From Patescibacteria group bacterium (lineage in GTDB: Bacteria; Patescibacteriota; Microgenomatia; UBA10105; UBA927): DNA of 64,000 bases. Within the stretch, counting starts at the first letter, position 1, and every line of letters starts with the position of its first letter. The notes under the pieces were generated by a model, which was given only the letters and a program-made list of their open reading frames with translations, was not told the DNA's origin and did not search any database. The stretch lies in NCBI GenBank assembly GCA_038063875.1, contig JBBTUH010000002.1, forward strand, positions 12,530-76,529. The letters are read 5' to 3'. Made by a program: the position numbers and the translations under genes. This document shows, piece by piece, positions 15,940 to 31,615 of the stretch.

Positions 15940-15985
15940 ACAATCTATTGTTTCGGAAATTGGGTATGTTTGTCAATACAAACCA

Positions 15986-16624
15986 TTACACTGCCCCCTT
16001 GCCGTAGATCATCGCCCACGGGCTTTTCAGTATTATGATGATATCAAGAAGCAGAGACCCTCGCTGTACATAATCAGCATCAAGCTTGATGCGTTTGTCA
16101 AAGTTTACCTCACTTCGTCCTGACACCTGCCAGTATCCAGTGATCCCAGGGCGCGCTGAAAGCACTACTTTTACCAACTCTCTGGTGTGTGGATACTTTC
16201 TTTGCTGCTCTATAAGCTCGTCAGGATAATAGGGTCTGGGGCCTACTAAACTCATATCACCTTTAAGGACATTTAAGAATTGTGGAATCTCATCGAGTGA
16301 ATGTTTGCGGATAAATTTGCCAACAGTGGTCACCCGAGGATCCTCAAGCAATTTGTAACTGTTTCGCTTGTACTCTTGATACAGCGCCTTTAGTGTCGGA
16401 TCTGTACGTAACTTCTCATGCGCATTGACGATCATTGATCGAAATTTTAGAAGTTTAAACGGTCTCCCATCTTTGCCGACGCGCTCAGGCGTGTCAGCAA
16501 ATATAGGTCCCGGTGAATCAAGTGTGATGGCAATTGCCACGAGAATACTTATAGGCAAGAAAAAAACAAAAAGGATCACACTGCCAACCAAATCTATACA
16601 CCGCTTAAAAATGGAATACCACAT
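15986..16624 (-). CDS. undecaprenyl-phosphate sugar phosphotransferase (small bacterial sugar transferase family, PglC/WbaP C-terminal type); initiating phosphoglycosyl transferase
   Basis: 212 aa. N-terminal re-entrant helix. KLLKFRSM and [21 protein letters not shown] motifs are diagnostic of PF02397. Confidence 0.85.
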
Positions 16625-16630
16625 AAAGTT

Positions 16631-17713
16631 TTAGGTGAGGTGATCGTTGTCAGTCCCCTGCATAGACTCTACAAGTTTTTTGACTTTCGGTACTGATGTT
16701 TTTTTACAGATCAACAAAACGTCTTTGGTGTTGACAACCATTATGCCATCCAGATCAATGGTCGCTACAAGCTGATCGGTATAATTGTACACTAATGAAT
16801 CCTGAACATCTGTAAGCATAACATTGCCTTGCGTCACATTCTTATCATCACTGGTTTCCAACGACTCCTTGAGCGCTTCCCACGCACCGATATCACTCCA
16901 CTCTATGTTTTCCGTAACGACCAGTGAATCTTTTACGTTCATTTTCTCCAAAATTGCATTATCAAAACTTATTTTCTCTAGCGTCGGGTATACGTGGCTT
17001 AATACCGTTTCAAACTCTTTTGTCCCATACGTATTGGCGATTTTCTGTATGCCAGAAGCCAAATTTGGTGCAAACTTTTGATATTGTTTCCACAAAAATG
17101 CTGGCGTGGTCACGAAGTACCCCAAATTCCATGCATGATGCCCGCTGACAAAATATTTTTGTGCGGTCTCTACATCTGGTCGATATTGATAATCTTCAAG
17201 TGAATGAAACGATACGCCATTATGCTCTTCTATTTTCTTGCCATACGATATCCAACCCAAATTTTCGCTAGCAAATCTAGGCTTTTGTGATACAAACACT
17301 ATTTTTTGCGGATCTTTGGATATAACCTCTCCTGCCGTGATAAGAAGTTTACGAAACAATTCTTCCTTTTTGACCAAATGATCGCTCCAGAGAATCACCA
17401 TGGGCTCCAGAGGGCTTTCTTTCAAAAGAATTGCAGACATCAGCCCTACTGCTGGCCCCACATCCCTCACTTGCGGCTCTCCAATCACGTGGGTAGAGGC
17501 TACATGGGGAAGTTGTTTTTTCACAAGCTCTACATACTGCTTTCCCGTCGATATGTACACATCACTCCATAAAAAATCAGGTTGCAGCCGTGACGCAGCA
17601 AGCTGCAACGTAGATTGATCTCCAACTATTTTTTCAAATTGCTTGGGAGATTTCTTCCGTGATAATGGCCATAACCTCGTGCCCACGCCGCCCGCAAATA
17701 TTATCGCTTTCAT
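16631..17713 (-). CDS. manC: mannose-1-phosphate guanylyltransferase (no C-terminal cupin)
   Basis: GGVGTRLWPLSRKKSPKQF canonical ManC/GMP N-terminus. 360 aa. Confidence 0.8.
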   Translation of the reverse strand: MKAIIFAGGVGTRLWPLSRKKSPKQFEKIVGDQSTLQLAASRLQPDFLWSDVYISTGKQYVELVKKQLPHVASTHVIGEPQVRDVGPAVGLMSAILLKESPLEPMVILWSDHLVKKEELFRKLLITAGEVISKDPQKIVFVSQKPRFASENLGWISYGKKIEEHNGVSFHSLEDYQYRPDVETAQKYFVSGHHAWNLGYFVTTPAFLWKQYQKFAPNLASGIQKIANTYGTKEFETVLSHVYPTLEKISFDNAILEKMNVKDSLVVTENIEWSDIGAWEALKESLETSDDKNVTQGNVMLTDVQDSLVYNYTDQLVATIDLDGIMVVNTKDVLLICKKTSVPKVKKLVESMQGTDNDHLT

Positions 17714-17721
17714 AAAAATTC

Positions 17722-18801
17722 CTACCTTTCAGAAACTATACGCATCAGAGTATCGCTCATTTTTTGCTTAAAGTGCTCTTTTGAAAATTGTGCTGCCTGA
17801 TTTTTACAATCTATGGATAGGATACGTGCCATATCAAATTTTTTGATAGCCTGCTTTATAGATTCCACAGACTGCTCCTCAAATAGTATACCAGTCTTTA
17901 GGTCTATAACACTTTCTGACACGCCACTATGTTTATACGCGATAACTGCTTTCCCTCGCGCTTGTGCTTCTACTGCTGCTATACCAAAGTCTTCGTCAGC
18001 CGCATACAGAAACGCACGACAGTTGTCATAATACGAAACCAACTCTTTCTCTGTCAAATGATGTGTCACAAACGTTATGGTATTTCCTGCTATTTTTTGT
18101 AACATAGGCAACTCTCTCCCGCTCCCAACGACCACCAAGGGGACCTGTAACTGATTACACGCGCGGATAAGTAAATCAACGCGTTTATACGAAACAAGGC
18201 GCGAAACTGTCAAAAAATAATCACCAGAAACAAATTGCTTGGCAGGACTAATTTCTACTGGCGGATAGATTACAGCCATAGTTTTTCTATGATAATATTT
18301 TTCAATTCTCGCTTTCACGCGATTTGAGATTGCAATATATGCATCCGGCCTATGTGAGGCTATCAAATCCCAATGTTTTAAAATAGGTGCCCATTTTTTC
18401 AAAAAAAATCCTAATACGGGCATTCGTACATACTGCTCATACCCACTCCATAAATATCTCGTTGGGGTAAGACAATAACATATATGATATGTCTGCGGTT
18501 TCGTAATAATATTCTTAGCTTCCGCAGACGTTACAGAAATCACAAGATCGAACTGATCAAAAGTAAATTGCTCAAAGGCAAACGGTGTCAACATTGGTAA
18601 CACTTCATGAAATGAAGAGGCAAATGGAAGGTTGTTTAAAAACGAGGGTCGCACGCTAAATACCTCAGCCCATCCTGCTTTTTTAGCATTGTATACGGCA
18701 GTATAGAGAGGCGCATCCGGATACAGCTCATGAAGCGCCATAAGCACCCGTTCAGCTCCACCATACTTATTTACCCGATCATATACGAGTGCAACTCTCA
18801 T
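17722..18801 (-). CDS. glycosyltransferase family 4 (GT-B, retaining)
   Basis: 359 aa. C-terminal GT1 domain with an E..G...E-type motif (AVEAQARGKAVIA). Confidence 0.75.
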   Translation of the reverse strand: MRVALVYDRVNKYGGAERVLMALHELYPDAPLYTAVYNAKKAGWAEVFSVRPSFLNNLPFASSFHEVLPMLTPFAFEQFTFDQFDLVISVTSAEAKNIITKPQTYHICYCLTPTRYLWSGYEQYVRMPVLGFFLKKWAPILKHWDLIASHRPDAYIAISNRVKARIEKYYHRKTMAVIYPPVEISPAKQFVSGDYFLTVSRLVSYKRVDLLIRACNQLQVPLVVVGSGRELPMLQKIAGNTITFVTHHLTEKELVSYYDNCRAFLYAADEDFGIAAVEAQARGKAVIAYKHSGVSESVIDLKTGILFEEQSVESIKQAIKKFDMARILSIDCKNQAAQFSKEHFKQKMSDTLMRIVSER

Positions 18802-19861
18802 AAAGCTTTAACGTTTTCTTTGCCATATCATGCCAATCATATTTTTTCAAAAATGATGTCATCTTTTGAGGTGAAATTTGATGATCGCTTTTTTTCCACG
18901 CAAAAAGAAGAGTGGCAAGATGCTTACTGTCGCTTGATGGAAAATACGTAACCATATCCTGAAGTATTTCTTTATGCACAGGAATATTTGACGCGATAAC
19001 GGGACACCCGAAAGAAAGTGCTTCAAGGGGCGGCAGCCCGAAACCCTCCATCAGGGAAGGAAACAAAAGTGCCTGCGCGTATGTATACAAACAGACAAGC
19101 GTCGCATCATCCGCTGCTCCAAAGAAAACTACTCGTGACGACAATCCTCGCGTGATAATCTGTGCGTGCAAACGTTTGTAAAAAAAATCTTCCTTCCCGA
19201 CAAATACTATTTTCGCTTTTGATTTGAAATGAGAAAGAGCGTCAATAACGACAGCAAGATTTTTGTGAGGGTACGCATTTCCTACGTACAAAAAATACGG
19301 AAAAGAAAACAGTGGGCCTGTTTTTTTATTTTCTAAATTCACCCCTTCATATGTCACGGTTATTTTGTCGCCTGCAATTCCATAGTGTTCTTGAATTTCA
19401 TTCTTGGTGGCGTTTGATGGAACGATGATATGTCGTACTTTCTTAATACCTATGGATACAATTACACCATATAAAAATCTTTTCACCTTGTACATCAACC
19501 ATGGACCTGTAGAAGCTTTTCCGGTATCAAAGTGTTTTATTGTGAGATCATGAATCGTCACAATCATCGCTCCGTTATAAAAAATTGGTATATTAAAGTA
19601 TGGAATATGTACAACATCCAAACGCTCTATAGCAAACAAAAACGGCATCACACACTGCTCGAAAACAGTGTGCCATCGGACATTAGCGCGCACCTTTTTC
19701 CATCGAGCGTTGGGAACAATAAAATTGTTAAATCCTGTCCGATATAAAAAAACAACGTATTCATTCTGGTCATCAAGTACTATGAGTTGCCGTATAAGAT
19801 TACGGATATACCGTCCGACACCAGTCTCATCTATAAGGCGCGCGTCTATGCCTATTTTCAT
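18779..19861 (-). CDS. glycosyltransferase family 4
   Basis: 360 aa. GT4 C-terminal domain (MEGFGLPPLEALSFGCPVIASN). Confidence 0.75.
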   Translation of the reverse strand: MKIGIDARLIDETGVGRYIRNLIRQLIVLDDQNEYVVFLYRTGFNNFIVPNARWKKVRANVRWHTVFEQCVMPFLFAIERLDVVHIPYFNIPIFYNGAMIVTIHDLTIKHFDTGKASTGPWLMYKVKRFLYGVIVSIGIKKVRHIIVPSNATKNEIQEHYGIAGDKITVTYEGVNLENKKTGPLFSFPYFLYVGNAYPHKNLAVVIDALSHFKSKAKIVFVGKEDFFYKRLHAQIITRGLSSRVVFFGAADDATLVCLYTYAQALLFPSLMEGFGLPPLEALSFGCPVIASNIPVHKEILQDMVTYFPSSDSKHLATLLFAWKKSDHQISPQKMTSFLKKYDWHDMAKKTLKLYESCTRI

Positions 19862-20781
19862 ATCCCGATTCTCTCCAATAAAAATATACGAATAGTATAA
19901 AAATCATCTACCATCATCGTAATCCACCACGGATATATTTTTTTATAGTGCTTTTTGTAAAACAACCAGTTATATCTATGAAAATATACTTCTGTAACGT
20001 TTCGCCTTTTTTTGAGAATGTTGTCTCTTCCACTTTGCTTCTTGCGATGCAGTATCGACGTTTGCGGATTAAACATGATCTTCCAATCAGCTTTTTTTAT
20101 CCGATAACACCAATCAATGTCCTCACCATACATAAAATAATCCTCATCCAGAAGTCCTACGTGTTCTATAACCTCACGCCTCACCATAAAAAACGCACCG
20201 ACGATACAATCTACCTCGTGAATAGTTTCTAAACCTTTATATCCTTGGTGATATTGTCCAAATATTGTTGACGTAGGGAACAATTTTTCAAGCTTCAACA
20301 AATACGTCAAGGATGCCCATGGTGTCGGAAATCCTCTATGACACGAAGGATCCAAGTCCCCTGATGGTAATAACACCTTGCACGTTGAGACGCCCACATC
20401 ATGATGCGCATCCATATATGAGATCATGGAAAAAAATGTCGTCTCACGCACTTCTGTATCTGAATTTAATAGTAAAATATATCTGCCTTTGGATTTTTTG
20501 ATCCCTGAGTTATTCCCTGCTGCAAAACCTATATTTTTTCCATTTTGTATACGTATAACTTCGGGGAATTCTTTCGAGACCATCTCAAGACTTCCGTCAT
20601 CTGATGCGTTATCACATACGATGACTTCCATTGTGTAATCTCCAAGCAACGAAGCAAAGACTGTAGATAAACACGCACGCAACAGCTCCTTTGTGTTATA
20701 CGAAAGTATGATGACAGAAAGATCGACCTTATCGTTTTTTTTCATGTGTAGTACGCCAAACTGTATCAAGCGTTTTTGCAA
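19858..20781 (-). CDS. glycosyltransferase family 2
   Basis: LSVIILSYNTKELL...VIVCDNASDDGS and downstream DxD-type motifs. The true start is possibly the internal Met at 20745. Confidence 0.8.
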   Translation of the reverse strand: MQKRLIQFGVLHMKKNDKVDLSVIILSYNTKELLRACLSTVFASLLGDYTMEVIVCDNASDDGSLEMVSKEFPEVIRIQNGKNIGFAAGNNSGIKKSKGRYILLLNSDTEVRETTFFSMISYMDAHHDVGVSTCKVLLPSGDLDPSCHRGFPTPWASLTYLLKLEKLFPTSTIFGQYHQGYKGLETIHEVDCIVGAFFMVRREVIEHVGLLDEDYFMYGEDIDWCYRIKKADWKIMFNPQTSILHRKKQSGRDNILKKRRNVTEVYFHRYNWLFYKKHYKKIYPWWITMMVDDFYTIRIFLLERIGI

Positions 20782-21913
20782 TGCTATCCCAATTATATTC
20801 TCTCTCTACCAGCGTTCGAGCTGCTTTTACTACTTTTTCTCTATGGGAGTGATCACTGACCAATCGCGCCAGTTTATCGACAAACTCATGTGGCGTATTG
20901 GCAATCAAAACGTGTTTTTCATCTTCACAATCAATACCTTCTACACCCGCACGCGTAGAAACGACAGGTACACCGCTTGCCATCGCCTCGAGCACTTTAA
21001 ACTTTGTGCCGCCAGCGATGGTCATGGGAGCTAATAAGGCAAACGCAGCATTATACTCATCACGGATATCAGAAACATCAGTTTTACCTATAATTCTACC
21101 GGTTAATGCAGCCAATACATTTTCAGGCATATTTCTCCCAACGATTGTCAATGTGCTCTTTGGAAAACTCTCTGCAATCCTCGGCCAAATATCTGATAAC
21201 AAACGCTCTACAGCCTCTATGTTTGGTAACCAACGAAAATTACCAACAAAGAGAAAATTTTGGAGTATCTCTTTTTTGTGTTTGGGAAACGTAAACGATT
21301 CTGTATCTACACCGTTTGACACGACAGATACAGGAAAACTTAAATATGATTCCATAACACGTTGATCTTTTTGGGACACCGCCGTCACCATGTCAGCCTT
21401 TCGCCATACATAGTGCTCCCAGCGTTTAAGCCGCGAAACATCAATCATAAGAAGAAATCGCAACGGCAAAAAAGAACGTTTTCGCACATACTCTTCATAC
21501 ACCTGATACTCAATATTATGTTCAGAAACCACAATAGGAACGCGTGTATTTGGTATCGATGGCCACACATAAAACGGTTCAAGGTGAATAAGATCAAATG
21601 CTTTCGTAGCGAGTACCTTCGTAAGAAGCCTATACATCTTGGCATTGGCATAGGTCGAAAGCAAAAACGGCATCCGTGTAAACAAAGCTCTGGCTATATA
21701 CGGCACCTGCCATGCGCGACCACGATTGACCATATAAACCTGCTCACAAAATGAAAGGTCATTTTTATAGGATCGCTCTTTCTCATCCCTAATAAATGAG
21801 ACGAGTGTGATTGTATGTTTTGAAGAAAGACGCTTGAGAAGATTATACATCCGTATTTGTCCCCCCGAATGCAGAGGATACGGTAACACTGCTGAAACGA
21901 CGAGGATATTCAT
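20729..21913 (-). CDS. glycosyltransferase family 4
   Basis: 394 aa. N-terminal ILVVSAVLPYPLHSGGQIRMYNL (GT4 N-domain) and C-terminal EAMASGVPVVST. Confidence 0.8.
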   Translation of the reverse strand: MNILVVSAVLPYPLHSGGQIRMYNLLKRLSSKHTITLVSFIRDEKERSYKNDLSFCEQVYMVNRGRAWQVPYIARALFTRMPFLLSTYANAKMYRLLTKVLATKAFDLIHLEPFYVWPSIPNTRVPIVVSEHNIEYQVYEEYVRKRSFLPLRFLLMIDVSRLKRWEHYVWRKADMVTAVSQKDQRVMESYLSFPVSVVSNGVDTESFTFPKHKKEILQNFLFVGNFRWLPNIEAVERLLSDIWPRIAESFPKSTLTIVGRNMPENVLAALTGRIIGKTDVSDIRDEYNAAFALLAPMTIAGGTKFKVLEAMASGVPVVSTRAGVEGIDCEDEKHVLIANTPHEFVDKLARLVSDHSHREKVVKAARTLVEREYNWDSIAKTLDTVWRTTHEKKR

Positions 21914-23331
21914 TTAGGTTTTGTAAGATCGATAATAGCAAACGTATCATTTCGCACGAGCACTGTATAGGTCTCTGCCAGTGTTTTTGTCTCCCAGTCG
22001 GCATCTGTTGGGGACACAGTTACGTAGTGTGTCGCACCTTGTGCTAATTTTTTGTCTATATCAAATCCCAAAGGCCATCCTGTACGCTTGGTCTGATATA
22101 GAAACGTCGTATCACCGTTATATGGTGCTATGACCTTGGCATCTTTGGGCAATATCCTATCAGCTTCTATCCCTGCCATGATAATTTCTGGCCTGTTTAT
22201 CCAGTAATATGTACGCATATGAAACCACGAAAACGCAGTCGTAAATCCTATACCAACAACTAAAAATGTAATAGATGCGACACGAGAGAAATTTGTGTTC
22301 GTTAACAGATATGCAATTCCCTTACCTGCATATAAACATATGACGGGAAGAAGGAGTATCTGATAATAATCATGACGCACGTTGCCAGCGGCAAAAATAA
22401 CAAGATATGCAATGCTTCCAAGCAACAAAAGAGGTGGGACCCATTTTTCTTTTTTATCAAGCTTTAACGTAATGCCAAGTCCTACAAAAACTACTCCCCA
22501 ATATCCTAAGATAAGTTTCGATACGCGTTCAGCAAACAACCAATGAAACCATGCGCCTTTAAATCTGATATTGCCATCATTTAATAGCCATAAAAACACA
22601 GGGATGCCTTCTTTGTACTGCAAGATCCATTGCCTCCACCAAAGAAATGGGACAATAGTGATCAACGCGGCAATAGCCGCACGCGCAAATAATTGTAAAG
22701 AAAATTTATACTGTAAAATCATTAAACCTCCCAATGGCAACAACAAAAAGCCTGCTGTCGGTTTGATAAGAATAGATAGGGATGCACAAATTACGGATAA
22801 GAAAAAAGAAGTCTTCATCATTAAAAAAATACTACTTATCGCAAAAAACACCGCTAATGGCTCGGCTAACACTACCCTCCCATAAAAAACACTATACGGC
22901 AGTATCGCATACAAAAACCCAGCTGAAATTCCAGCAAGCGGTGTGATAAGCACAGAGGCTATAACCGCAAGAAGTACCGCTGTCAAGGCTGATGCAATGA
23001 TAGTGATTATACGAAGCGCTATATCGACTGATAAAAACGGCATCATACGCACAAGCATCGTAGCTGCCGCCTGATACAGTGGGACTTCCACCATCCTATA
23101 CCCATGTGGATTATCTTTGCCTGACTGGATGTTTGAAAGATCATGGTAACGGGGATGCAATACATCTATACCATCTGTCACAAAAATTCGAGCGACAGAT
23201 GCGGTATCTACTTGACGAAAACTATGCCAGTCAGAAACAGGCGCTGTTACTTTGTACAATCGAAGCCCTACAGCCACGACAAATATCCCCACAAGAGCAA
23301 TCGTAAACCAATATTTTTTCAAATCTTTCAT
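21910..23331 (-). CDS. polytopic GT-C fold membrane glycosyltransferase (ArnT/PMT-like, GT39/83-like)
   Basis: 473 aa. At least 10 predicted TM helices. A first periplasmic loop with a D-x-x-x-x-x-R motif after TM1 (QVDTASVAR). 4-bp overlaps with both neighbours. Confidence 0.6.
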   Translation of the reverse strand: MKDLKKYWFTIALVGIFVVAVGLRLYKVTAPVSDWHSFRQVDTASVARIFVTDGIDVLHPRYHDLSNIQSGKDNPHGYRMVEVPLYQAAATMLVRMMPFLSVDIALRIITIIASALTAVLLAVIASVLITPLAGISAGFLYAILPYSVFYGRVVLAEPLAVFFAISSIFLMMKTSFFLSVICASLSILIKPTAGFLLLPLGGLMILQYKFSLQLFARAAIAALITIVPFLWWRQWILQYKEGIPVFLWLLNDGNIRFKGAWFHWLFAERVSKLILGYWGVVFVGLGITLKLDKKEKWVPPLLLLGSIAYLVIFAAGNVRHDYYQILLLPVICLYAGKGIAYLLTNTNFSRVASITFLVVGIGFTTAFSWFHMRTYYWINRPEIIMAGIEADRILPKDAKVIAPYNGDTTFLYQTKRTGWPLGFDIDKKLAQGATHYVTVSPTDADWETKTLAETYTVLVRNDTFAIIDLTKPK

Positions 23332-26309
23332 TCTACTTCTATAACCTTTGTTTCTTGTCGCGCTTTGTTTAGGACAAACTGTTCGTCAAAAAGAAGTACA
23401 TCAGGAGCACCAATCGGACTCTTTATGGCAAATCCATCCTTAACCGTGGGTGCTGTATATACTAGATACGCATACGGATTGAATTTAAACATGTGCCACA
23501 ATGCATCCTCAAGACCCGTTGGGAATATCCATGCTCTCCCGAATCGTATCGGCATATTTACAAAGACAAAGGTATGAGAATTTTGTAATGGAAAATAATT
23601 TGCTTTCAGCGTCAAGATAGTACGCTCGGAAATGTTGGAGGCAGTGTGCCAATCACCGATAACGCGCCGGAGCTCTGTATAATTGAAACCAAACGCCAGC
23701 AAAAGAAGCGTTATTGCAACAAAGATACCACGTCCTTTAAACATTCGTTTCTCTATAAAAACTCCGACTGCAATCGACAAAAACACGGTCGCACTTAACG
23801 CATAACGCTCTGCCATACCACCTAATCCGATAAAGGGAAGCATCGACACACACGCCATCAAAATCCACAACGAAACCTCTCTGTTTGATGACACCATCCT
23901 CCCCAAGCGCTTGAAAAAATACACCAACACTATCGTGAATATCCCGAGTACACCCAACACAATCACAGGCATACCTTTTACGACTTCTCGAAAGGCTGTC
24001 ATCCACTCAACGACCCGCGGTCCTCCATATGTTGCCAATATATAGCCGATGCCATTGGCGGGAATATTAAACGGTAATCTCAAGAAATTGACACTGTAAT
24101 CCCCTGACTGGAGTAGTGAGTGCGCACTCGATCGCATAACCCAATATATGGGAATAACCCCGAGTATCAGCGCATAGTGCGTACGTTTAAATAGTATGAG
24201 AATAGCAACGAGTGCAACAATCAATGGACTTACGATGCCACCCTCATAGGAGAGTGCGGATACCAACGCAAATACTAAAACAGCGCCCGCATAAATTATC
24301 TTTACAAATCTACGCGTTGTGCTCTTTGTACTGATAAGAATAGAAAGTACAAGAAACAGAGTAGACAAGAGGCTAGAAAGACCTGACGTCCAAACGACAT
24401 TCTCATGATGGATAGCCAAGACGATAAACACCGCAGTCGTCAAAAACGCGACACTTGTACGGACAAATCGTGCGCGCAAAATCGCATATACAATAGCCGC
24501 AATGGCTGCAAATAATCCAATAAGCACCATGTGATACCCCCAAGGCTTGAGCCAAAACAAACTATACAAGACAAAGTACATAATTTTTGCAATTGGTCTG
24601 TAAAAAAATCCGCTTGCATCAACAAAAAACTTTGGGAGATCGGAAATAGTCGTTGAGGCAGCCCACCTGAGCCATGTGAAGTCATCTCCGACAAAATAAA
24701 ACGAAATACTATCCTTGAATATCAAAAACGTCAGCATAACGATATACACATACATTGAGAATTGACTCGTACATACTCGCAGCAAAAGCTTCGGGTATGA
24801 TTCTCTCCACGCCCTCACAGAGAGTACCGCCACCATTGCACCGATAAGCGGCCACAACGTAAACGCTACTTTCGACGCCTCAAACACATCAATAAGCGTC
24901 GCATTTAAAAATAACCCGACGATACCAGCGGATAACCCTGTCACAAAGGCCTCTTCGTATGGCGAGAGTAACGGCTTTGCCTTACCATAGAGCGCAAATA
25001 ACGTGATAAAAATTCCAACAAACGCAATCGTTCCAAGGATTCCCGTTTCCCCAAGCATCCGCATATAATCGCTATCACTTGCCACAGACAGACTTGAGTA
25101 TCCGCTCCCTGTTATGATATTTCGTTTAAATGCCGCTATCGCTTTGGGCCATTGGCCTTGTGATCGTGTGGTAAAAGAAATGTCATACACAAATGCTTTT
25201 TGTATAAGAAAATTTCCCGACACTGTAGCGATCTCACCAGAGCCTGTGGAGAGAGGAGTGCTGACAAACATCTCTATAGTTTTAAATGTCTTTGTGGGCT
25301 TTGTAGCTACCTGCGGAGCACTTATAAATCCGCTGCCCGTCGGAAGTGTTTCTACATCCGGCTTTTCTTGTGTACTGACCACCGCATTAGAGCCATTAAT
25401 ACTCTCGAGCGTTCCTATGGGTTGACCCGTTGAGAGGTCAATAATGACATCAGAGAACCGAAGTGTTTTATAAAACCGCTCAGACGCTGTAGAGATGGAA
25501 TTTAAAAGAAGCATACTCACTACCACGACAGGAATAATCCATATTTTCTTATTTTTCCACCACAACATCATCACAATCGATACAAGATACACACCAAACG
25601 ATACACGCGATGCGGTAAAAAGTAAGAGAACCAACGATCCTATGGCAACACTGAGCATACAAAGCTTCTGCCACAATTTTTTCATCCCAAACACAAAGCT
25701 CCCAAACAGCGGGATCAAAAGCACCAAATACGCAGCTAAATCATAATGACCACCAAAGGTAGATGCGATGCGCGCGGTGGGAGGTAAGCGCAGTGGAATG
25801 CCCTTGGAAAATTCTTCATTCATAGTAAGGAATGCTGGCCACCCTACAAACTTTTGCCCGATGCCGTAGATAATCACAACAAGTGTCGCGACCGTAAGAG
25901 TCCAAAGCAACACAGGTAATGCTTTTGGATTTTTGTACACCGCATAAAATCCCACAAAAAACATTCCCATATATTCAATTCTTCGGAATAGATGCAAAAA
26001 TGCTATATGGGCAATAAAGTCAGGATTTTTGACGACAACCATGCCCACTACGACAGAGATGAGACCAACTACCCAATACACAATAATCGGTACAGTGAGA
26101 GGTGTTTTTAGATCAATTTTTCGCTTGACTACCAATATCCCTACTGCAAACAAAACTATAGCTACCAAAAAATCCTCAAGTCGTATATACACCCATGTCT
26201 GCACTACATCCAAAAGCGGCAATTTAGGATACAACGGGATAAACGCCAAAAGAAAGGCGGCTCCCAACAAGAGCCACTCTTTTTTACACCAGTGTATAAG
26301 CTTCTGCAT
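23328..26309 (-). CDS. 993-aa fusion membrane protein: N-terminal O-antigen ligase/polymerase-like (Wzy_C) domain plus a C-terminal GT-C-like polytopic domain
   Basis: GSGYSSLSVASDSDYMRMLGETGILGTIAFVGIF resembles the conserved Wzy_C/PglL segment (G.G......AHNsYL..LaE.GiiG). The C-terminal half is another ~12 TM helices with a GDDFTWLRW loop motif. Confidence 0.55.
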   Translation of the reverse strand: MQKLIHWCKKEWLLLGAAFLLAFIPLYPKLPLLDVVQTWVYIRLEDFLVAIVLFAVGILVVKRKIDLKTPLTVPIIVYWVVGLISVVVGMVVVKNPDFIAHIAFLHLFRRIEYMGMFFVGFYAVYKNPKALPVLLWTLTVATLVVIIYGIGQKFVGWPAFLTMNEEFSKGIPLRLPPTARIASTFGGHYDLAAYLVLLIPLFGSFVFGMKKLWQKLCMLSVAIGSLVLLLFTASRVSFGVYLVSIVMMLWWKNKKIWIIPVVVVSMLLLNSISTASERFYKTLRFSDVIIDLSTGQPIGTLESINGSNAVVSTQEKPDVETLPTGSGFISAPQVATKPTKTFKTIEMFVSTPLSTGSGEIATVSGNFLIQKAFVYDISFTTRSQGQWPKAIAAFKRNIITGSGYSSLSVASDSDYMRMLGETGILGTIAFVGIFITLFALYGKAKPLLSPYEEAFVTGLSAGIVGLFLNATLIDVFEASKVAFTLWPLIGAMVAVLSVRAWRESYPKLLLRVCTSQFSMYVYIVMLTFLIFKDSISFYFVGDDFTWLRWAASTTISDLPKFFVDASGFFYRPIAKIMYFVLYSLFWLKPWGYHMVLIGLFAAIAAIVYAILRARFVRTSVAFLTTAVFIVLAIHHENVVWTSGLSSLLSTLFLVLSILISTKSTTRRFVKIIYAGAVLVFALVSALSYEGGIVSPLIVALVAILILFKRTHYALILGVIPIYWVMRSSAHSLLQSGDYSVNFLRLPFNIPANGIGYILATYGGPRVVEWMTAFREVVKGMPVIVLGVLGIFTIVLVYFFKRLGRMVSSNREVSLWILMACVSMLPFIGLGGMAERYALSATVFLSIAVGVFIEKRMFKGRGIFVAITLLLLAFGFNYTELRRVIGDWHTASNISERTILTLKANYFPLQNSHTFVFVNMPIRFGRAWIFPTGLEDALWHMFKFNPYAYLVYTAPTVKDGFAIKSPIGAPDVLLFDEQFVLNKARQETKVIEVE

Positions 26310-27150
26310 AAGTATCCTTTAGCTGTGCTCTCCCCATCATAACACCGATCATCCATCCAATAAGCGCCTTTGTTTTTAGCAAAAATTTCAAAATAGAAAG
26401 CTGCCATGCAGGCATATACTTCCCATAAAAATGGAGAAGCCCACGATAAATATTTAAGACTGGCCCTTTCCTCTTGTTTTGTGAGCTACCCCCTCCAAGA
26501 TGCACAACAAGCGCGCGATGGTAAAAATATGTAGGATACCCTTTAAGCTTTGCTCGATACAAAAGATCAATCTCTTCCATATACATAAAAATATCTTCAT
26601 CAAATAATAAATCGTTCATGAAAAGCTTTTTGGCAGCGATGATACAGGCTCCTGACACCCAATCTACCTTTCTCGTGCGATCGGGAGACCAACGAGTAAG
26701 CCCCAACACATCACCCTTTAAAAATAACGCGGCAAAGGTAACGGGCAACGTGAAAAATGGCCCACACGACGTCTGTGGGCTTCTATCGGCATTTAAAAGT
26801 TTGCCGCCGACAAACGCGTTGGGATGCTGTTTTACAAAGGCATGCAGCTTGAGAATAGATGAATTCAATGCTACGGTGTCAGAATTTAAAAGCAATATAT
26901 ATTCTCCTTTTGCGACCTTTATCGCTTGGTTATTTGCTTTTCCAAACCCTGCGTTTATTCGATTGAGTATGAGTCGTACTTTCGGAAACTTTTTTTTGAT
27001 TATATCTCTTGTGCCATCGGTGGATATATTATCGACGACGATAACCTCAAATGAAATTTTGGTGTGATCAAGTGATCGAAAAATAGACGCAATGCAATCA
27101 TGTGTTAATTTTTGCGTATTAAAGCTAACGATAATAATAGATAGATCCAT
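26284..27150 (-). CDS. glycosyltransferase family 2
   Basis: LSIIIVSFNTQKL...VIVVDNISTDGT, then DxD and NADRSPQ-like motifs. Confidence 0.8.
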   Translation of the reverse strand: MDLSIIIVSFNTQKLTHDCIASIFRSLDHTKISFEVIVVDNISTDGTRDIIKKKFPKVRLILNRINAGFGKANNQAIKVAKGEYILLLNSDTVALNSSILKLHAFVKQHPNAFVGGKLLNADRSPQTSCGPFFTLPVTFAALFLKGDVLGLTRWSPDRTRKVDWVSGACIIAAKKLFMNDLLFDEDIFMYMEEIDLLYRAKLKGYPTYFYHRALVVHLGGGSSQNKRKGPVLNIYRGLLHFYGKYMPAWQLSILKFLLKTKALIGWMIGVMMGRAQLKDTYAEAYTLV

Positions 27151-27162
27151 AAAAAATTGGGG

Positions 27163-27726
27163 TTATTGAAATAGTCGTGCAAATTTTAATGTATAGTGCA
27201 AGTCTTTAGTTCTATCCTTGATAAATTTAGCGGGAACTCCTCCAACGACAGTGTATGCAGGTACATCCTTTGTGACGACCGCGCCACTTGCGATCACTGC
27301 TCCTTTTCCTATACGTACGTTGGGAAGTATAGTCACTCGTGTGCCTATGACTACGTAGTCTTCAATCACGACCGGTCCACCTATTTCACTAAAATCAGTA
27401 CTCTCGATATCATGCTCCATCGTGTAAATGCGAACTTCCCCAGCAATAGACACATTATCACCTATGATAAGCGGCGATCGATGCGTTTTAAGATAAGAAA
27501 TGAAATGTTTCATTCGCCCATCCAAAAATGCATCATTTCCAATGATTGTGTTATTCCCGATACTGACCCCTGCTGGTTGATTAAATTCAGCTCGCCAGTG
27601 AATTGAAGAATTCTTTCCAATTTTTACTCTAAATAACGTACGGTAAAGAAAAAGCCGGATCGTATGGCTAGGAATGTATCCTGTGAGGGTTGCCAAATAT
27701 ACCCAAAAATCGATAAGCATTCTCAT
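27163..27726 (-). CDS. hexapeptide-repeat (left-handed beta-helix) sugar O-acetyltransferase
   Basis: 187 aa. Tandem [LIV]G..xx repeats ([15 protein letters not shown]...[11 protein letters not shown]...[25 protein letters not shown]). Confidence 0.75.
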
Positions 27727-27732
27727 ATAGTT

Positions 27733-28866
27733 TTATTTTACCTGACTGACAACCTCTTCCAAAACAGAAAGCACTTGTTTGGCGGCAGTATCCCAAGAAA
27801 AAAGCGAAACTCGTTCTTTGCCTACCTGAATACGTGCTTTTTGCTCTGCTGATCCATGCTCACTGAGTGATTTGGTCAGTCCGTCTGTAATACTTGTGAC
27901 ACGTAGCGGATCAACATATATGGCAGCGTCACCTGCTATTTCAGGGATGCTTGATACGTTACTCACCACTATGGGGCATTCATACGCCATCGCCTCAAGG
28001 ACTGGTAATCCAAAGCCCTCATACAGACTTGGGCATACGAAACACTGCGCATGCGTGTAAAGTGTCGCGAGGTCATCATCATGCACAAAATCAAGAATTT
28101 TTACACGATCTTTCACCCCATACACACTAGGAGCTGCGAGTATTTCTTCATACATCCAGCCCTTTTTACCGACAATAACAAGTGTTAACGAAGTGTCTTC
28201 AAGCTTTGAAAAAGCCTCAATAAGGCGCACAAAGTTTTTCCGCGGTTGCAGCGTGCCGACTGAGAGTATATACGGCGTACGTATGCCGTATCGGGTAAGA
28301 GGGGCCTGACGATTATCGATCTTTTTTTTCTTCACGCTCATACTCATCCCTGGATACACGACAACGACGCGATCCGAGGCTAGGTTATAGGCTTCCATTA
28401 TAGCATGTTTGGAGTACTCACTAATCGTTATTACCTTTGCACAGTGCTGCACTGAATATGCTGTCCACGTTGTAAGCTGATAGAGATCCTTTTTGGTAAA
28501 TAACTCAGGATAATGAAGATATGACACGTCCATAATAGAGCAAACGCGGGGAATACCTATAAAACGAGGCACGTAATGTGTCGGAGAAAATACGACATCC
28601 GCGCGTGGTTTATCTTTATAGAGACGCCATGGGAGACCTATAAAAGTCCAAAGTTTTTTCGGTCGTCTCACAACGTAGCGCCATACAGCAGTCTCGATGG
28701 GAAGATCATCAACCGGTGCATCAGGCATGTATACCCTCACAGTACTGAATCGACTTTTTCCTAGCTCTACCGCTGTCTTTATCCCAGTCAGCATCTCGTA
28801 GGCAAATCGACCAATGCCTACACGATTTCCACTATTTGCCTCATACCCGTCAATGGAAAGTATCAT
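27733..28866 (-). CDS. glycosyltransferase family 4
   Basis: 377 aa. C-terminal YEGFGLPVLEAMAYECPIVVSN. Confidence 0.8.
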   Translation of the reverse strand: MILSIDGYEANSGNRVGIGRFAYEMLTGIKTAVELGKSRFSTVRVYMPDAPVDDLPIETAVWRYVVRRPKKLWTFIGLPWRLYKDKPRADVVFSPTHYVPRFIGIPRVCSIMDVSYLHYPELFTKKDLYQLTTWTAYSVQHCAKVITISEYSKHAIMEAYNLASDRVVVVYPGMSMSVKKKKIDNRQAPLTRYGIRTPYILSVGTLQPRKNFVRLIEAFSKLEDTSLTLVIVGKKGWMYEEILAAPSVYGVKDRVKILDFVHDDDLATLYTHAQCFVCPSLYEGFGLPVLEAMAYECPIVVSNVSSIPEIAGDAAIYVDPLRVTSITDGLTKSLSEHGSAEQKARIQVGKERVSLFSWDTAAKQVLSVLEEVVSQVK

Positions 28867-28871
28867 ATGTA

Positions 28872-29456
28872 TTATGGATATCCTGGATACACGACTGTGA
28901 GCTTATCCTCTGAGATCGAAAGAAATTTCATGACATCATTCTTTGTGGCAATACTGTCACAAAAAATCCGATCACATTCTTTCTTTACCCAATGCAAACG
29001 TCTTTTATGCACACCGACGATGTTTGCCCGAAACTGTCCTTGTTTGATATCTATATGTGGCTCTGGATGAGCGTCATTTGGATACGTAAAAACGACTAAA
29101 TCATGCACCGTTGTCACACCTTTTGCCAAGATAAGTGGTGGCTGTGTCCAGTCACTGCTCCAAAACACATCAACATTACCGATAATCCACTCAATTGGTA
29201 CGATATGAAGCCTGTTCCATACAATATCCAAAAGAATTGGCGGGACAGGAATAATGACCGATGAAACATTGGCGTATTTTTTTTCAAGCGAAGCGGCAAA
29301 AGCTTTTAACATATGACGTCTGCGAAGTGATGCGCCAAAAAGAATATAGTGGTGGCCGGCACCTTTGGTAAGTATGGAAGTTACTAACCGCTGTACATAC
29401 CGTGATACTCCTGTGTGTTCAAAGGCTACTTGGCTTATATCAATTCCTATTTTCAT
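28872..29456 (-). CDS. glycosyltransferase family 4 N-terminal domain only (truncated or stand-alone GT4 half)
   Basis: 194 aa. GT4 N-domain features, and it ends in ...LTVVYPGYP, exactly where the C-terminal GT1 domain would begin. The next ORF is an independent full-length GT4. Confidence 0.5.
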   Translation of the reverse strand: MKIGIDISQVAFEHTGVSRYVQRLVTSILTKGAGHHYILFGASLRRRHMLKAFAASLEKKYANVSSVIIPVPPILLDIVWNRLHIVPIEWIIGNVDVFWSSDWTQPPLILAKGVTTVHDLVVFTYPNDAHPEPHIDIKQGQFRANIVGVHKRRLHWVKKECDRIFCDSIATKNDVMKFLSISEDKLTVVYPGYP

Positions 29457-30445
29457 ATTGCGATATATCCCGTAGGATGATTCTCATGCCAATGCCATGC
29501 GGAGGCAATAATGTCTGAGAGTTTTGAATGTTTTGGTACCCACCCGAACTCCTTTTTAAGCTTAGAGGGATCAGCCACAAGCTCTGGCGAATCACCCACT
29601 CGCCTTTCTGATGTGACGACCGTAAACTCACGCCCTGATATTTCCTTCACCAACGCTAAAACCTCAGAAACGGTCGCACCGACCCCTGTGCCTACGTTGT
29701 ACACATCACTTTTATGACCGTTTATCAGTGCATCCATAACCAGCAAATGCGCTTCACATAGGTCATCGATATGAATATAGTCACGAACTGCAGTGCCATC
29801 CTTGGTCTTATAATCCGTGCCGAAGATGTGAAACTGATCCCGAAGACCTAATGCTGTTTGACACGCAAGCGGGATAAGATGTGTTTCTGGCTCATGTGCC
29901 TCGCCGTTTAATCCATCAGAAGCTGCTCCACATGCATTAAAATAACGAAGACTCACTGATCGTATGCCAGAAGACCGATCATAGACATCAAGAAGTTGCT
30001 CAAAATTCCATTTCGACAATCCGTATGTGGATAATGGATTTATAGGATGGGTCTCAGGAATTGGTACTGTTTGCGGCATGCCATAGACAGCTGCTGTCGA
30101 AGAAAAAATAATCGGCATGGATCCTGCGTCCCGCATGCATTCTAATAGTACAGTCGGCGCGATGAGATTATTGCGCATATATCGAATGGGATTTTGGATT
30201 GACTCCTCGACAGATATATACCCCGCAAAATGTAAGACTCCGTCTATGTGATGATTGGTAAAGAGAGAAGAAACAGCATCTTTATCACCGACATTCCCCT
30301 CTACCAACGCCACGCCCTTTGCCATTGCGCGTGCATGACCATATTCGAGGGTATCCAAGACTATAGCTTCATGACCGTGCAACTGAAGCATTCGACACAT
30401 GTTACTTCCGATATACCCAGCACCTCCAGTGACTAAGAACTTCAT
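29453..30445 (-). CDS. galE: UDP-glucose 4-epimerase
   Basis: MKFLVTGGAGYIGSN, a YGLSKWNFE-type YxxxK motif and 330 aa match GalE. Confidence 0.8.
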   Translation of the reverse strand: MKFLVTGGAGYIGSNMCRMLQLHGHEAIVLDTLEYGHARAMAKGVALVEGNVGDKDAVSSLFTNHHIDGVLHFAGYISVEESIQNPIRYMRNNLIAPTVLLECMRDAGSMPIIFSSTAAVYGMPQTVPIPETHPINPLSTYGLSKWNFEQLLDVYDRSSGIRSVSLRYFNACGAASDGLNGEAHEPETHLIPLACQTALGLRDQFHIFGTDYKTKDGTAVRDYIHIDDLCEAHLLVMDALINGHKSDVYNVGTGVGATVSEVLALVKEISGREFTVVTSERRVGDSPELVADPSKLKKEFGWVPKHSKLSDIIASAWHWHENHPTGYIAI

Positions 30446-30449
30446 ACTG

Positions 30450-30671
30450 TTATTTTACCTTATGAGAGGGTGTAAAGGAAAATAGAATGAAGAAAAGAAA
30501 GAATGCTGCCGCATACCACGTAAGCCGTTCTGCGGTAAAAAATATATGCAGTGCAAACAGTGGTAAAGATATACTAAGCATGAGAAGACCAGTCCACGCA
30601 AATAGCAGTGGATTTTTCAACGCTAAAAACGTACCGAGTATGATACCAAACACAATGTCTTGTGGCTTCAT
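30450..30671 (-). CDS. small hydrophobic membrane protein (2-3 TM), unknown function
   Basis: 73 aa, almost entirely hydrophobic. Packed between galE and UXS with 4-bp spacing. Confidence 0.3.
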   Translation of the reverse strand: MKPQDIVFGIILGTFLALKNPLLFAWTGLLMLSISLPLFALHIFFTAERLTWYAAAFFLFFILFSFTPSHKVK

Positions 30672-31615
30672 TGTAAATTTTTGTAATACGAAACAGTTTT
30701 TTTCAATCCTTCATCGACCGATACCACTGGTTGCCAACCCAAAAGCTCTTTGGCCTTTGTGATATCTGGTCGCCTCTTTACCGGATCATCTGATGGCAAA
30801 GGTGCATACATAATCTCTGATGTACTCTGGGTAAGTACTATAATCTTTTTTGCCAAATCTACCATCGTATACTCTTCAGGATTACCAATATTTATGACTT
30901 CACCGTTGGCATCTTCTTTTTCCATCAAAGAAATAAGGCCCTCCACTTGATCTGACACGAAGCAAAGTGATCTAGTCTGTAAACCATCTCCATACACGGT
31001 CAATGGTATATTTGCGAGTGCTTGATTGATAAAATTAGACACCACACGACCATCATCCTTTTTCATATTCGGGCCGTAAGTATTAAAGATTCGTGCAATT
31101 CTTGTGTCCACGCCATATTTTGTGTGATAAAGCATAGTCATCATTTCGCCGAAACGTTTGCTTTCGTCATAACAACTTCTGACACCATTCGGATTTACAT
31201 TTCCCCAATAGTCCTCTTTTTGTGGATGCTCTTTCGGATCCCCGTATACCTCGCTTGTAGAAGTATAGAGAAAACGAGCCCCATGCTCTTTGGCAAATAG
31301 AAGCGCATTTCTCGTTCCCACAGAATTAACGAGCGCTGTTACTTCTGGATTATTCTGGTAATCGATCACTGATGCAGGAGATGCCAAATGCCATACATGT
31401 GTGACATCATCAATCACTGGTAATCCCCCTATAACATCTGCCTGAATAAAGGAAAATTGATGATTATTTTTGGCTTCTCTAAGATTTTCCATCTTACCGG
31501 TAATCAAATTATCAATCGCAACTACCATATGCCCCAGATCAAGAAGTTTGTTTACTAAATTACTCCCTATAAATCCTGCACCACCAGTAACAAGACTAAC
31601 CGCGTTTTTACCCAT
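30668..31615 (-). CDS. uxs: UDP-glucuronate decarboxylase (UDP-xylose synthase)
   Basis: LVTGGAGFIGSNL, YDESKRFGEMM and RIFNTYGPNM...DGRVVSNFINQAL match the UXS-specific signature (RIFNT[FY]GP.M...DGRVVSNF). Confidence 0.8.
   Translation of the reverse strand: MGKNAVSLVTGGAGFIGSNLVNKLLDLGHMVVAIDNLITGKMENLREAKNNHQFSFIQADVIGGLPVIDDVTHVWHLASPASVIDYQNNPEVTALVNSVGTRNALLFAKEHGARFLYTSTSEVYGDPKEHPQKEDYWGNVNPNGVRSCYDESKRFGEMMTMLYHTKYGVDTRIARIFNTYGPNMKKDDGRVVSNFINQALANIPLTVYGDGLQTRSLCFVSDQVEGLISLMEKEDANGEVINIGNPEEYTMVDLAKKIIVLTQSTSEIMYAPLPSDDPVKRRPDITKAKELLGWQPVVSVDEGLKKTVSYYKNLQ

Follow-up and report, generated by a model that had tools for sequence, protein, structure and literature searches.

Wzy-type polymerases (clan GT-C1, families GT125-GT129) belong to class B of the GT-C glycosyltransferases, a fold class that they share with the ligase WaaL (GT121; PDB 7TPG/7TPJ) and the SEDS proteins FtsW and RodA (GT119). 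These polymerases are defined by a class B GT-C fold in which the outer face carries conserved residues and a long loop lies towards the C-terminus (PMC10920833). The ligases have two arginines that bind undecaprenyl diphosphate (Und-PP) plus a histidine, and in clan GT-C1 an Asp or Glu is aligned to this ligase His in the SEDS proteins and in all polymerase families except GT127 (PMC10920833). WaaL, PglL and TfpM all depend on this His (PMC3643930; PMC9829042).

PMT_2/PMT/ArnT-type enzymes (GT39, GT83) have an acidic motif after TM1 and belong, with GT53, GT57, GT66 and relatives, to another branch of the GT-C fold, class A. In class A, the catalytic Asp sits at the JM1 tip (PMC12041525). Enzymes of the PMT_2 type decorate wall polymers extracellularly, including in the proposed Wzx/Wzy pathway of B. 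anthracis (PMC8035078). The Gram-positive extracellular glycosylation systems (GtlB, GttB, CsdD/F, GtsC, GacL, YkcB) are multi-component, and the locus described here is likened to them.

The window, the whole 64-kb stretch of DNA that was analysed, includes a gene for a 993-aa protein (23328..26309, minus strand; ORF and translation) in which the two fold classes are joined. Residues 1-500 (24810..26309, minus) form a 12-TM domain of the WaaL/Wzy fold (GT-C class B), read here as a Wzy-type polymerase, and residues 501-993 (23331..24809, minus) form a class A GT-C glycosyltransferase domain. The initial annotation had described the gene as coupled by 4 bp to a 473-aa ORF; both ORFs were found, with an ATGA overlap (junction sequence GAATGAAAG). 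At its other end, the fusion gene overlaps by 26 bp with an upstream GT2 gene (26284..27150). An identical protein is publicly recorded as a hypothetical protein of Patescibacteria, and the fusion has 1,831 homologs, of which those listed are ~1,000 aa long. Both halves lie in one uninterrupted ORF in 79 of the 80 related loci examined. The fusion is thus genuine, as had been proposed, and a missed stop as its origin is excluded by the identical public protein together with the single-ORF loci.

Relatives of the fusion are encoded in at least 577 GTDB species genomes; the fusion is natural and is conserved across hundreds of species of the Microgenomates (Patescibacteria). On two other metagenomic contigs, the halves are adjacent separate genes in an unchanged operon position, in the order GT2, N module, C module, PMT. 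The profile matches of these split orthologs are strong for both the N-module genes (E 3e-134 and 2e-128) and the C-module genes (E 4e-78 and 1.5e-70), and all key residues are retained, including the DD of the C module. At the loci L085/L086, a C module takes up this operon position and the 9.6-kb contig has no N module, which counts against the coupling of two steps preferred below. Across a 78-member alignment, in which overall identities reach down to about 34%, the candidate catalytic residues are invariant: R180, R235, R278, R382, D412, R417, D542, D543, R571, E636, R726 and R774. Fusion, split orthologs and synteny are directly established. No paper on this fusion or family was found in the literature; both folds are already known, and the fusion and its family appear to be undescribed.

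Hydropathy gives ~18 TM segments for the whole fusion. In the AlphaFold model, the N half has 12 TM helices; the C half has another TM bundle and, after it, a small soluble domain. The short loops obey the positive-inside rule (K+R 15/49 residues inside vs 6/64 outside), and the predicted topology places all conserved loops on one side, the outer. In the model, the N module has a WaaL-type fold with a long extracytoplasmic loop ahead of the last three TM helices, and this loop and the outer-face conserved residues are features by which the GT-C1 polymerases are defined. The full-length model has a pTM of 0.78, a hint that the two TM bundles may pack in a defined way.

The initial annotation had compared the N-terminal region with the Wzy_C block of ligases. 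By profile, the match to Pfam Wzy_C (PF04932) is borderline: the full protein scores 22 bits and the N half by itself 23.7 bits (E 1.5e-4 to 4.7e-5), short of the 31.7 bits set as gathering score. Four homologs score 24-28 bits and E. coli WaaL scores 50, and some family members carry a precomputed PF04932 match. The single NCBIfam match is weak (IctB family, 24.6 bits vs a cut-off of 366), and there is no polymerase match in the Pfam or NCBIfam libraries. A PDB sequence search found nothing, and hhalign gives the N module only ~10% probability against a WaaL profile; this weak likeness in sequence to characterised enzymes counts against the preferred reading. The Wzy_C question is settled by the fold matches: the nearest solved structure is a ligase (WaaL, PDB 7TPG/7TPJ), and FtsW and RodA also match. 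The comparison thus holds at the level of fold, and the HMM score stays below threshold. Since no Wzy-type polymerase is among the PDB fold matches, ligase and polymerase are inseparable by fold comparison, and the closeness to WaaL may reflect merely which structures are solved.

The TM5-TM6 extracytoplasmic loop and the start of TM6 (residues 156-190; 25740..25844, minus) read PAFLTMNEEFxKGxPLRLPPTARIxSTFGGHYD, highly conserved, with N164, E165, K169, R180 and D190 invariant in 78/78 members and H188 present in 75/78. In a weak hhalign alignment, R180 falls opposite WaaL R161, which is invariant in an enterobacterial WaaL alignment. R235, in a T-A-S-R motif (codon 25605..25607, minus), is invariant in all 78 and is the counterpart of E. 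coli WaaL R215, with which it is paired by hhalign and by Pfam coordinates, both at profile position 16. The large TM9-TM10 extracytoplasmic loop (residues 272-414; 25068..25496, minus) has a ~90-residue insert relative to E. coli WaaL and contains R278 and R382, both invariant; its sequence is highly conserved, despite a pLDDT below 50 for residues 273-377. After removal of residues 285-365, R382 pairs with WaaL R288 in hhalign. R235 and R382 would thus correspond to the Und-PP-binding pair R215/R288 (R191/R265 in 7TPG), as aligned with low probability.

The active-site motif lies at residues 401-426 (25032..25109, minus) and has the form GSG...A-x-D412-[NGS]-x9-G423-x2-G426, with Asp where ligases carry His. 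The initial annotation had quoted the surrounding sequence, which is located at residues 401-434 (GSGYSSLSVASDSDYMRMLGETGILGTIAFVGIF), and had noted Asp in the place of the usually conserved His. This is borne out: D412 and R417 are invariant in 78/78 members and E421, G423 and G426 are present in 77/78, and the residue at 413 is N in 45 members, G in 26 and S in 7. The canonical His is absent; residues 396-431 have no conserved His, and a His occurs at the non-conserved position 416 in 10/78 members. The essential ligase His (E. coli H338, PglL H349, TfpM H286, 7TPG H313) is thus replaced by D412 throughout the alignment. The register D-[NGS]-x9-G-x2-G matches H-[NSQ]-x9-G-x2-[GTY] of WaaL. 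In Pfam Wzy_C coordinates, E. coli WaaL 205-354 covers profile positions 6-146 and fusion residues 222-431 cover 3-149, so that, if indels are taken to be absent, H338 and D412 fall together near position 130. However, the gapped hhalign alignment near H338 departs from the motif register, which counts against reading the module as a polymerase.

The Asp had been taken as an anomaly, a view that does not survive comparison with clan GT-C1, where SEDS proteins and every Wzy-type polymerase family bar one carry Asp/Glu at this position (PMC10920833). Given that distribution, D412 suggests a polymerase-type module. Polymerases are recognised by one or two Arg plus Asp/Glu at the ligase His position (PMC10920833), and R235, R382 and D412 are found here. 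The N half looks like a polymerase and does not pass as a ligase or oligosaccharyltransferase, the label first given to it; from the sequence, we infer polymerase rather than ligase activity.

A role for the N module as a WaaL/PglL-type ligase or O-oligosaccharyltransferase is unlikely. In that role, with Asp substituting for His, it would move a finished glycan as one block off Und-PP, and the acceptor would be a lipid, the wall or a protein (an S-layer protein or a pilin, for example). WaaL is the nearest fold, but this may mirror which structures are solved, with no Wzy-type polymerase among the PDB matches. The His needed in WaaL, PglL and TfpM is absent (PMC3643930; PMC9829042) and the Asp is invariant; His at this position goes with ligases and Asp/Glu with SEDS and polymerase families (PMC10920833). 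The fusion differs in the same way from the wider PglL/TfpO/TfpM group, with its invariant Asp and a Wzy_C score below the gathering threshold. A lipid A-core acceptor is unlikely because Patescibacteria are judged to be without a Gram-negative envelope (PMC6744442). It is extremely improbable that the N module is a divergent peptidoglycan polymerase of the SEDS type with lipid II as its substrate, even with FtsW and RodA among the fold matches, the essential SEDS Asp aligned to the ligase His (PMC10920833) and peptidoglycan synthesis genes in the same window. A PBP is encoded at 7092..8771.

The second motif quoted in the initial annotation, GDDFTWLRW, is located at residues 541-549 (24663..24689, minus), and its likeness to GT-C acidic motifs is upheld. 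In the C module, the first of the juxtamembrane helices that follow TM1 begins with this acidic pair, and D542, D543, W546 and W549 are invariant in 78/78 members. The models place helices at 541-552 and 572-585 after this TM1, and the C module has the conserved seven-TM core of class A, its first outer loop carrying two juxtamembrane helices. By sequence and model, D542/D543 would supply the catalytic Asp of class A at the first juxtamembrane helix. The two folds of the fusion and their conserved residues are directly established.

Residues 501-993 have no Pfam match, PMT_2 (PF13231) included, and at profile level the C module is not similar to the neighbouring PMT-like family (hhalign probability 1.4%). 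A standalone relative, P0485, is found by the C-module profile (E 1e-29) and itself matches PF13231 with 34.1 bits (gathering score 26.1). Such standalone relatives match PMT_2, and through them a transitive sequence relationship links the C module to this family. At its end (residues ~906-993; 23331..23594, minus), both models have strands and helices of a small alpha/beta domain, probably extracytoplasmic from the predicted topology. It is unmatched in the split orthologs, where the profile match stops at position 440/497.

The neighbouring genes form a conserved glycan operon (13963..31615, minus; Pfam and NCBIfam). From 31615 to the fusion it encodes two epimerase/dehydratases, a GT4 N-terminal half, a GT4, a hexapeptide acetyltransferase and the GT2. 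From the fusion to 13963, it encodes the PMT-like GT-C, a GT4, a GT2, two GT4s, a ManC-like nucleotidyltransferase, a Bac_transf phosphoglycosyltransferase and a DUF4012 protein. The order AcT-GT2-fusion-PMT-GT4 is kept in about 80 loci, and that of the whole operon at three loci on ~1 Mb contigs (L001-L003; homologs of 46-56% identity). The 473-aa protein (21910..23331, minus; class A) has no Pfam match in the window copy at E up to 0.1. Its homologs (54-81% identity) match PF13231 in 35/40 cases and PF02366 in 26/40, in line with its earlier description as a PMT-type GT-C, and its family lies directly downstream of the fusion in related loci.

Like Wzy-type polymerases, the N module has a long extracytoplasmic loop near its C-terminus and conserved Arg residues with an Asp at the ligase His position, and its operon includes an initiating phosphoglycosyltransferase and cytoplasmic glycosyltransferases. 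Unlike them, the N module has the loop insert and is covalently joined to a second glycosyltransferase. The Bac_transf gene and several GT4/GT2 genes of the 64-kb window are syntenic, but the window yielded no Wzx/MOP flippase, ABC transporter, chain-length regulator or LCP ligase, a point against the preferred reading. The 288-aa GT2 (26284..27150, minus; Pfam Glycos_transf_2, E 2e-24), kept directly upstream in fused and split loci, recalls the GT-A/GT-C gene pairs (PMC8035078). It has no predicted TM segment, unlike GtrB/CsbB-type synthases, and neither GT2 enzyme of the operon has the C-terminal TM helices that GtrB/ArnC-type polyprenyl-phosphate-sugar synthases typically possess, which also speaks against the preferred mechanism. 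In further contrast to the Gram-positive systems, no GtrA-type flippase was recognised at the locus, and in contrast to PMT_2/ArnT-type enzymes, the C module is fused to a polymerase-like module.

The reading that we moderately favour is that the fusion combines two extracytoplasmic-acting, lipid-linked-sugar glycosyltransferase modules and couples polymerisation to outer-face glycosylation of a surface glycan. Judged by the gene set, Bac_transf and the GT4/GT2 enzymes would assemble an Und-PP-linked oligosaccharide on the cytoplasmic side, and a flippase encoded outside this window would flip the repeat unit. The 12-TM module would then act as a Wzy-type polymerase, with R235 and R382 (perhaps also R180 and R278) gripping the diphosphate and D412 in the acceptor-activating role of the ligase His and of the SEDS/Wzy-type polymerase Asp/Glu. 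The C module, via D542/D543, and the PMT_2-type GT-C of the next gene would transfer lipid-linked donor sugars to the same glycan on the outer face, as in the Gram-positive multi-component systems, and the fusion would keep polymerisation and decoration together in one polypeptide. In this scheme, the substrates and the precise part played by the C module are inferred. The polymer-glycosylating machine of the initial annotation is still reasonable, less its ligase label and the anomalous Asp.

It is doubtful that the C module is instead an oligosaccharyltransferase-like class A enzyme (GT66-like, with a lipid-PP-oligosaccharide donor) that moves the finished polymer made by the N module from Und-PP to its final acceptor, be it protein, peptidoglycan or lipid, with decoration left to the PMT_2 neighbour. 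That the fusion or split pair is a self-contained polymerase-transferase machine, its product handed directly to the C module and attached oligosaccharyltransferase-like to a surface acceptor in place of WaaL/LCP-type ligases, is quite unlikely. PIGU and GAB1 are non-transferase proteins with a GT-C-like fold, and one module could likewise be catalytically inactive, a scaffold, carrier-lipid binding partner or regulator of the other. This is very unlikely, however, given the invariant charged residues at canonical active-site positions in both modules, in the 78 members and in the split orthologs.

The coupling of polymerisation to outer-face glycosylation bears on the coordination of polymerisation with extracellular decoration or attachment, a question raised for B. 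anthracis (PMC8035078). Polymerase families have been studied with AlphaFold models (PMC10920833), and the fusion may serve as a stable single-chain target for structural and biochemical work. The rule at one motif position, His for ligase and Asp/Glu for polymerase, could sort Wzy_C-like proteins. Microgenomates have reduced genomes and are uncultivated, and their interactions with other cells are believed to run through the cell surface (PMC6744442); a large family of their "hypothetical proteins" now has a predicted function. The presence of the fusion in hundreds of species, together with its split orthologs, argues for a physical coupling of two glycan steps.

The fusion gene (window 23328..26309, minus strand) is a single open reading frame whose translation is a membrane protein of 993 residues, with an N module at residues 1–500 and a C module at residues 501–993. 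It overlaps by 26 bp with a GT2 gene upstream (26284..27150, minus strand) and is followed by the open reading frame for the 473-residue PMT-like neighbour (21910..23331, minus strand). The 4-bp overlap reported for these last two genes is present as the sequence ATGA, and the two motifs quoted by the initial annotation, the ligase-type block and the GDDFTWLRW loop, are found at residues 401–434 and 541–549. An identical 993-residue protein is present in public records as a hypothetical protein from a Patescibacteria MAG. There are 1,831 homologs, and the listed ones are about 1,000 residues long.

When each GTDB species was scanned through a single genome, at least 577 of these genomes proved to encode relatives of the fusion; the named ones are Gottesman-, Woese-, Levy- and Shapirobacteria and the “Microgenomates group”. 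Many species-representative MAGs with the operon (L004, L007–L011 and many others) have the TPA record title “uncultured Gammaproteobacteria bacterium”, which looks like a mislabelled submission batch. From these genomes, 80 loci were retained, nearly all of which match the fusion near full length at 34–74% identity. A single unbroken reading frame covers both halves in 79 of the 80, so the two-domain fusion is real and not the artefact of a missed stop. The sole locus with a stop codon within the frame (L036, 326–3415) may reflect a sequencing error or a pseudogene.

Pfam matches Wzy_C at residues 222–431 of the fusion with 22 bits (23.7 bits for the N half alone), below the gathering score of 31.7 bits, and gives no match for the C half. 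Three profiles, built on the full family, on the C half and on the PMT-like family, were searched against PDB sequences, and no real relative came up. The only matches paired GRAWIFPTGLxDALWHMF with a blade repeat of the Photorhabdus PLL/PHL lectins at E 0.6–5. The segment concerned, GRAWIFPTGLEDALWHMF (residues 923–940 in the C-terminal soluble domain; window 23490–23543, minus strand), resembles one blade of these propeller lectins; as it occurs in a single copy and with such E-values, the likeness is not significant and was taken as chance.

The AlphaFold model, made from 58 family members (pLDDT 77, pTM 0.78), has an N-terminal bundle of 12 TM helices, in which a large loop joins TM9 to TM10, followed by a second TM bundle and a small C-terminal α/β domain. 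Against a background of at most 8.3, the fold-match figures of the WaaL/SEDS type were 22.7 for WaaL (332 of 403 residues aligned), 13.3 for FtsW and 11.7 for RodA, and those of the PMT/ArnT type were 23.4 for Pmt4, 18.1 for ArnT and 17.5 for Pmt1/2, with further matches to ALG12, AglB, ALG3, AftA, ALG9 and STT3B. By these figures, the modelled N half is a WaaL/SEDS fold (GT-C class B) and the modelled C half a class A fold, in the usage of PMC10920833 and PMC12041525. The short loops obey the positive-inside rule, which places all conserved loops of both modules outside the cell. By hhalign, the two halves are not related to each other, nor is the C half a duplicate of the PMT-like neighbour (probability 1.4%).

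The key residues of the ligases and O-oligosaccharyltransferases are R215, R288 and H338 in E. coli WaaL, corresponding to R224, R298 and H349 in PglL (PMC3643930), and TfpM requires the equivalent His (PMC9829042). The E. coli waaL sequence confirmed the three residues and a local motif H-N-x9-G-x2-G. In the fusion family, this motif becomes D412-[N45/G26/S7]-x9-G423-x2-G426, with D412 invariant in 78 of 78 members, so that an Asp does stand where the conserved His is usual, as had been proposed. Three lines of evidence place D412 opposite H338: the motif itself; the Pfam coordinates, with both residues at about profile position 130 and R235 and R215 both at position 16; and the topology, with D412 located where the big loop ends, immediately before TM10 in the AlphaFold model. 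The choice of register rests on the spacing within the motif, on the Pfam coordinates and on the preference for N, G or S at position 413. With hhalign, the N half matches E. coli WaaL, as a single sequence or as a 31-sequence profile, at only 0.3–10% probability, too weak to serve as sole support. The weak alignment to the family profile (about 10%) pairs R235 with R215 and R180 with R161, and R382 with R288 once the loop insert is removed; its gapped register at H338 is ambiguous and differs from that of the motif. Regardless of register, no conserved His is found in residues 396–431 of the family.

What does this Asp mean? The ligases of clan GT-C1 have two Arg and a His, the latter proposed to activate the acceptor, whereas an Asp or Glu aligns with the ligase His in SEDS proteins and in all polymerase families of the clan but GT127 (PMC10920833). 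By this finding, the Asp of the fusion is not an anomaly but the signature of polymerase-type members. For the rival reading of the N module as a ligase or oligosaccharyltransferase, the residue that defines a ligase is missing, and the earlier ligase/oligosaccharyltransferase-like label is not supported. A SEDS-like enzyme, an unlikely rival, would also carry an acidic residue at this position; its fold figures, those of FtsW and RodA, are above background and below that of WaaL. A polymerase rather than a ligase is thus the somewhat favoured reading of the N module, although it hinges on a single published finding (PMC10920833).

In the C module, D542 and D543 of the GDDFTWLRW loop are invariant in the family. 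In the models, they stand where the first helix following TM1 begins, which is the position given for the catalytic Asp in class A enzymes (PMC12041525). Together with the class A fold, this fits the earlier comparison of the loop to a GT-C acidic motif. When 1.84 billion representative proteins were searched with the C-module profile, there were 122 clusters at an E cut-off of 1e-30, 10,503 at 1e-10 and 49,531 at 1e-3. The matches include standalone proteins of 450–650 residues, some of which match Pfam PMT_2 (e.g., P0485, with 34.1 bits, above the gathering score), providing a transitive sequence link from the C module to PMT_2/ArnT-type families. The PMT-like neighbour itself has no Pfam match. 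Among its homologs, 35 of 40 match PMT_2 and 26 of 40 match PMT, and its description as ArnT/PMT-like stands through them.

Two metagenomic contigs of 34–38% GC (L087 and L089) carry the same operon segment with the N and C modules as separate genes: a GT2 of 316–318 residues (Pfam Glycos_transf_2), an N-module protein of 530–535 residues matching the whole N profile (E 3e-134 and 2e-128), a stop codon and a gap of 4–12 nt, a C-module protein of 467–471 residues (E 4e-78 and 1.5e-70) and a PMT-like protein of 506–556 residues (E 2e-114 and 2e-101). The N-module proteins retain all key residues, D412 included; the C-module proteins retain the DD motif and leave the last ~55 profile positions unmatched. 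Two JGI contigs, compared by gene sizes and order alone, have the same arrangement. That the two modules occur both fused and split is classical evidence of their acting together. In a further variant (L085, 1–795 and 1633–3078; L086), a C-module homolog of 481 residues stands alone after the GT2 in the same operon position, with no N module within the 9.6-kb contig and a second, partial C-module-like gene upstream of the GT2.

The operon comprises, in order, two epimerase/dehydratases, GT4 pieces, an acetyltransferase, a GT2, the fusion, the PMT-like protein, a GT4, a GT2, two GT4s, a ManC-like nucleotidyltransferase, a Bac_transf phosphoglycosyltransferase and a DUF4012 protein. CPR and Gram-positive bacteria are enriched in DUF4012 proteins, one of which lies within a Bifidobacterium capsule/EPS cluster (PMC6744442). 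The entire operon is syntenic around homologs of 46–56% identity, and in related loci that have sufficient flanking sequence, the run from acetyltransferase through GT2, fusion and PMT-like GT-C to GT4 recurs in essentially every case. Across these loci, the N half (39–85% identity) is more conserved than the C half (26–63%). The assignment of folds, fusion and linkage can be held with high confidence.

No Wzx-type flippase, ABC transporter, chain-length regulator or LCP ligase/protein was found in the 64-kb window. A 73-residue ORF between the two epimerase/dehydratase genes (30450–30671, minus strand) has two to three hydrophobic segments, no family match and a counterpart of 65–73 residues in the same place in related loci L001–L003; it may be a small flippase subunit. 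The 194-residue product of the gene at 28872–29456 (minus strand) corresponds to the N-terminal half of a GT4 (Glyco_transf_4) and no more; the retention of this separate short gene in L001–L003 suggests that the GT4 is split and speaks against a pseudogene. In 7 of the 80 loci, an additional gene, absent from the window, lies between the epimerase and GT4 genes (e.g., L002, 5389–6948; L003, 5297–6907). Its product of 519–536 residues has about eight TM segments, a “CFDDCF” (DD) loop after TM1 and no Pfam match; it was rejected as a flippase and is probably another GT-C-like enzyme. The GT2 enzymes of the operon, considered as polyprenyl-phosphate-sugar synthase candidates, have no predicted TM helices. 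Two C-terminal TM segments on a GT2 are the architecture associated with GtrB/ArnC-type synthases of this kind, and within the window a single candidate has it, a 325-residue protein 33 kb from the fusion gene (59408–60385, minus strand), with no specific NCBIfam identification.

Elsewhere in the window are two paralogous membrane proteins of 1,190 and 713 residues (42565–46137 and 46417–48558, both minus strand), 38% identical over ~590 residues (E 1e-134), with about 10 TM segments each and no match in Pfam or NCBIfam. Both start with TM1 followed by FWLKxGxMDLGGDSxRLYFYDP, which by its sequence resembles the acidic motif in the first loop of GT-C enzymes. L001–L003 also have large unassigned proteins upstream of the operon. 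NCBIfam weakly relates a 669-residue protein (40586–42595, minus strand), with about eight TM segments and no Pfam match, to the MmpA family (trehalose lipid delivery); the score is 42 bits, where the cut-off is 210. Genes resembling the AbiEi_2 antitoxin (32730–33830, minus strand) and AbiEii toxin (38653–39336, minus strand) of type IV toxin–antitoxin systems sit within the long glycan-biosynthesis island.

Both folds of the fusion are already known. Family members are named “hypothetical protein” or, once, “O-Antigen ligase” in public records; no Pfam or NCBIfam model covers them, and sequence searches detect no relative with a solved structure. Literature searches on O-antigen ligases of the candidate phyla radiation/Patescibacteria, and on Wzy_C with PMT_2, turned up no account of the fusion protein, and the words “fused”, “fusion” and “modular” are absent from PMC10920833. 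Together, these suggest that the family is undescribed.

In the best-supported reading, the operon would make an Und-PP-linked oligosaccharide that, once flipped, would be polymerised by the N module, with the Arg residues holding the diphosphate and D412 activating the acceptor. Alternatively, the C module could be oligosaccharyltransferase-like and attach the polymer; or, less probably, one module could be inactive, to be set against the invariant D412 and DD motif and their retention in the split proteins. Under the best-supported reading, the C module would act with its PMT_2 neighbour to add sugars from lipid-linked donors onto the same glycan outside the cell, a decoration role that is proposed tentatively for the C module. 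Such sugar addition would be like that of Gram-positive multi-component extracellular glycosylation systems, which use PMT_2-type GT-C enzymes and include the proposed B. anthracis Wzx/Wzy pathway (PMC8035078; PMC11127046). The fusion would hold these steps together.
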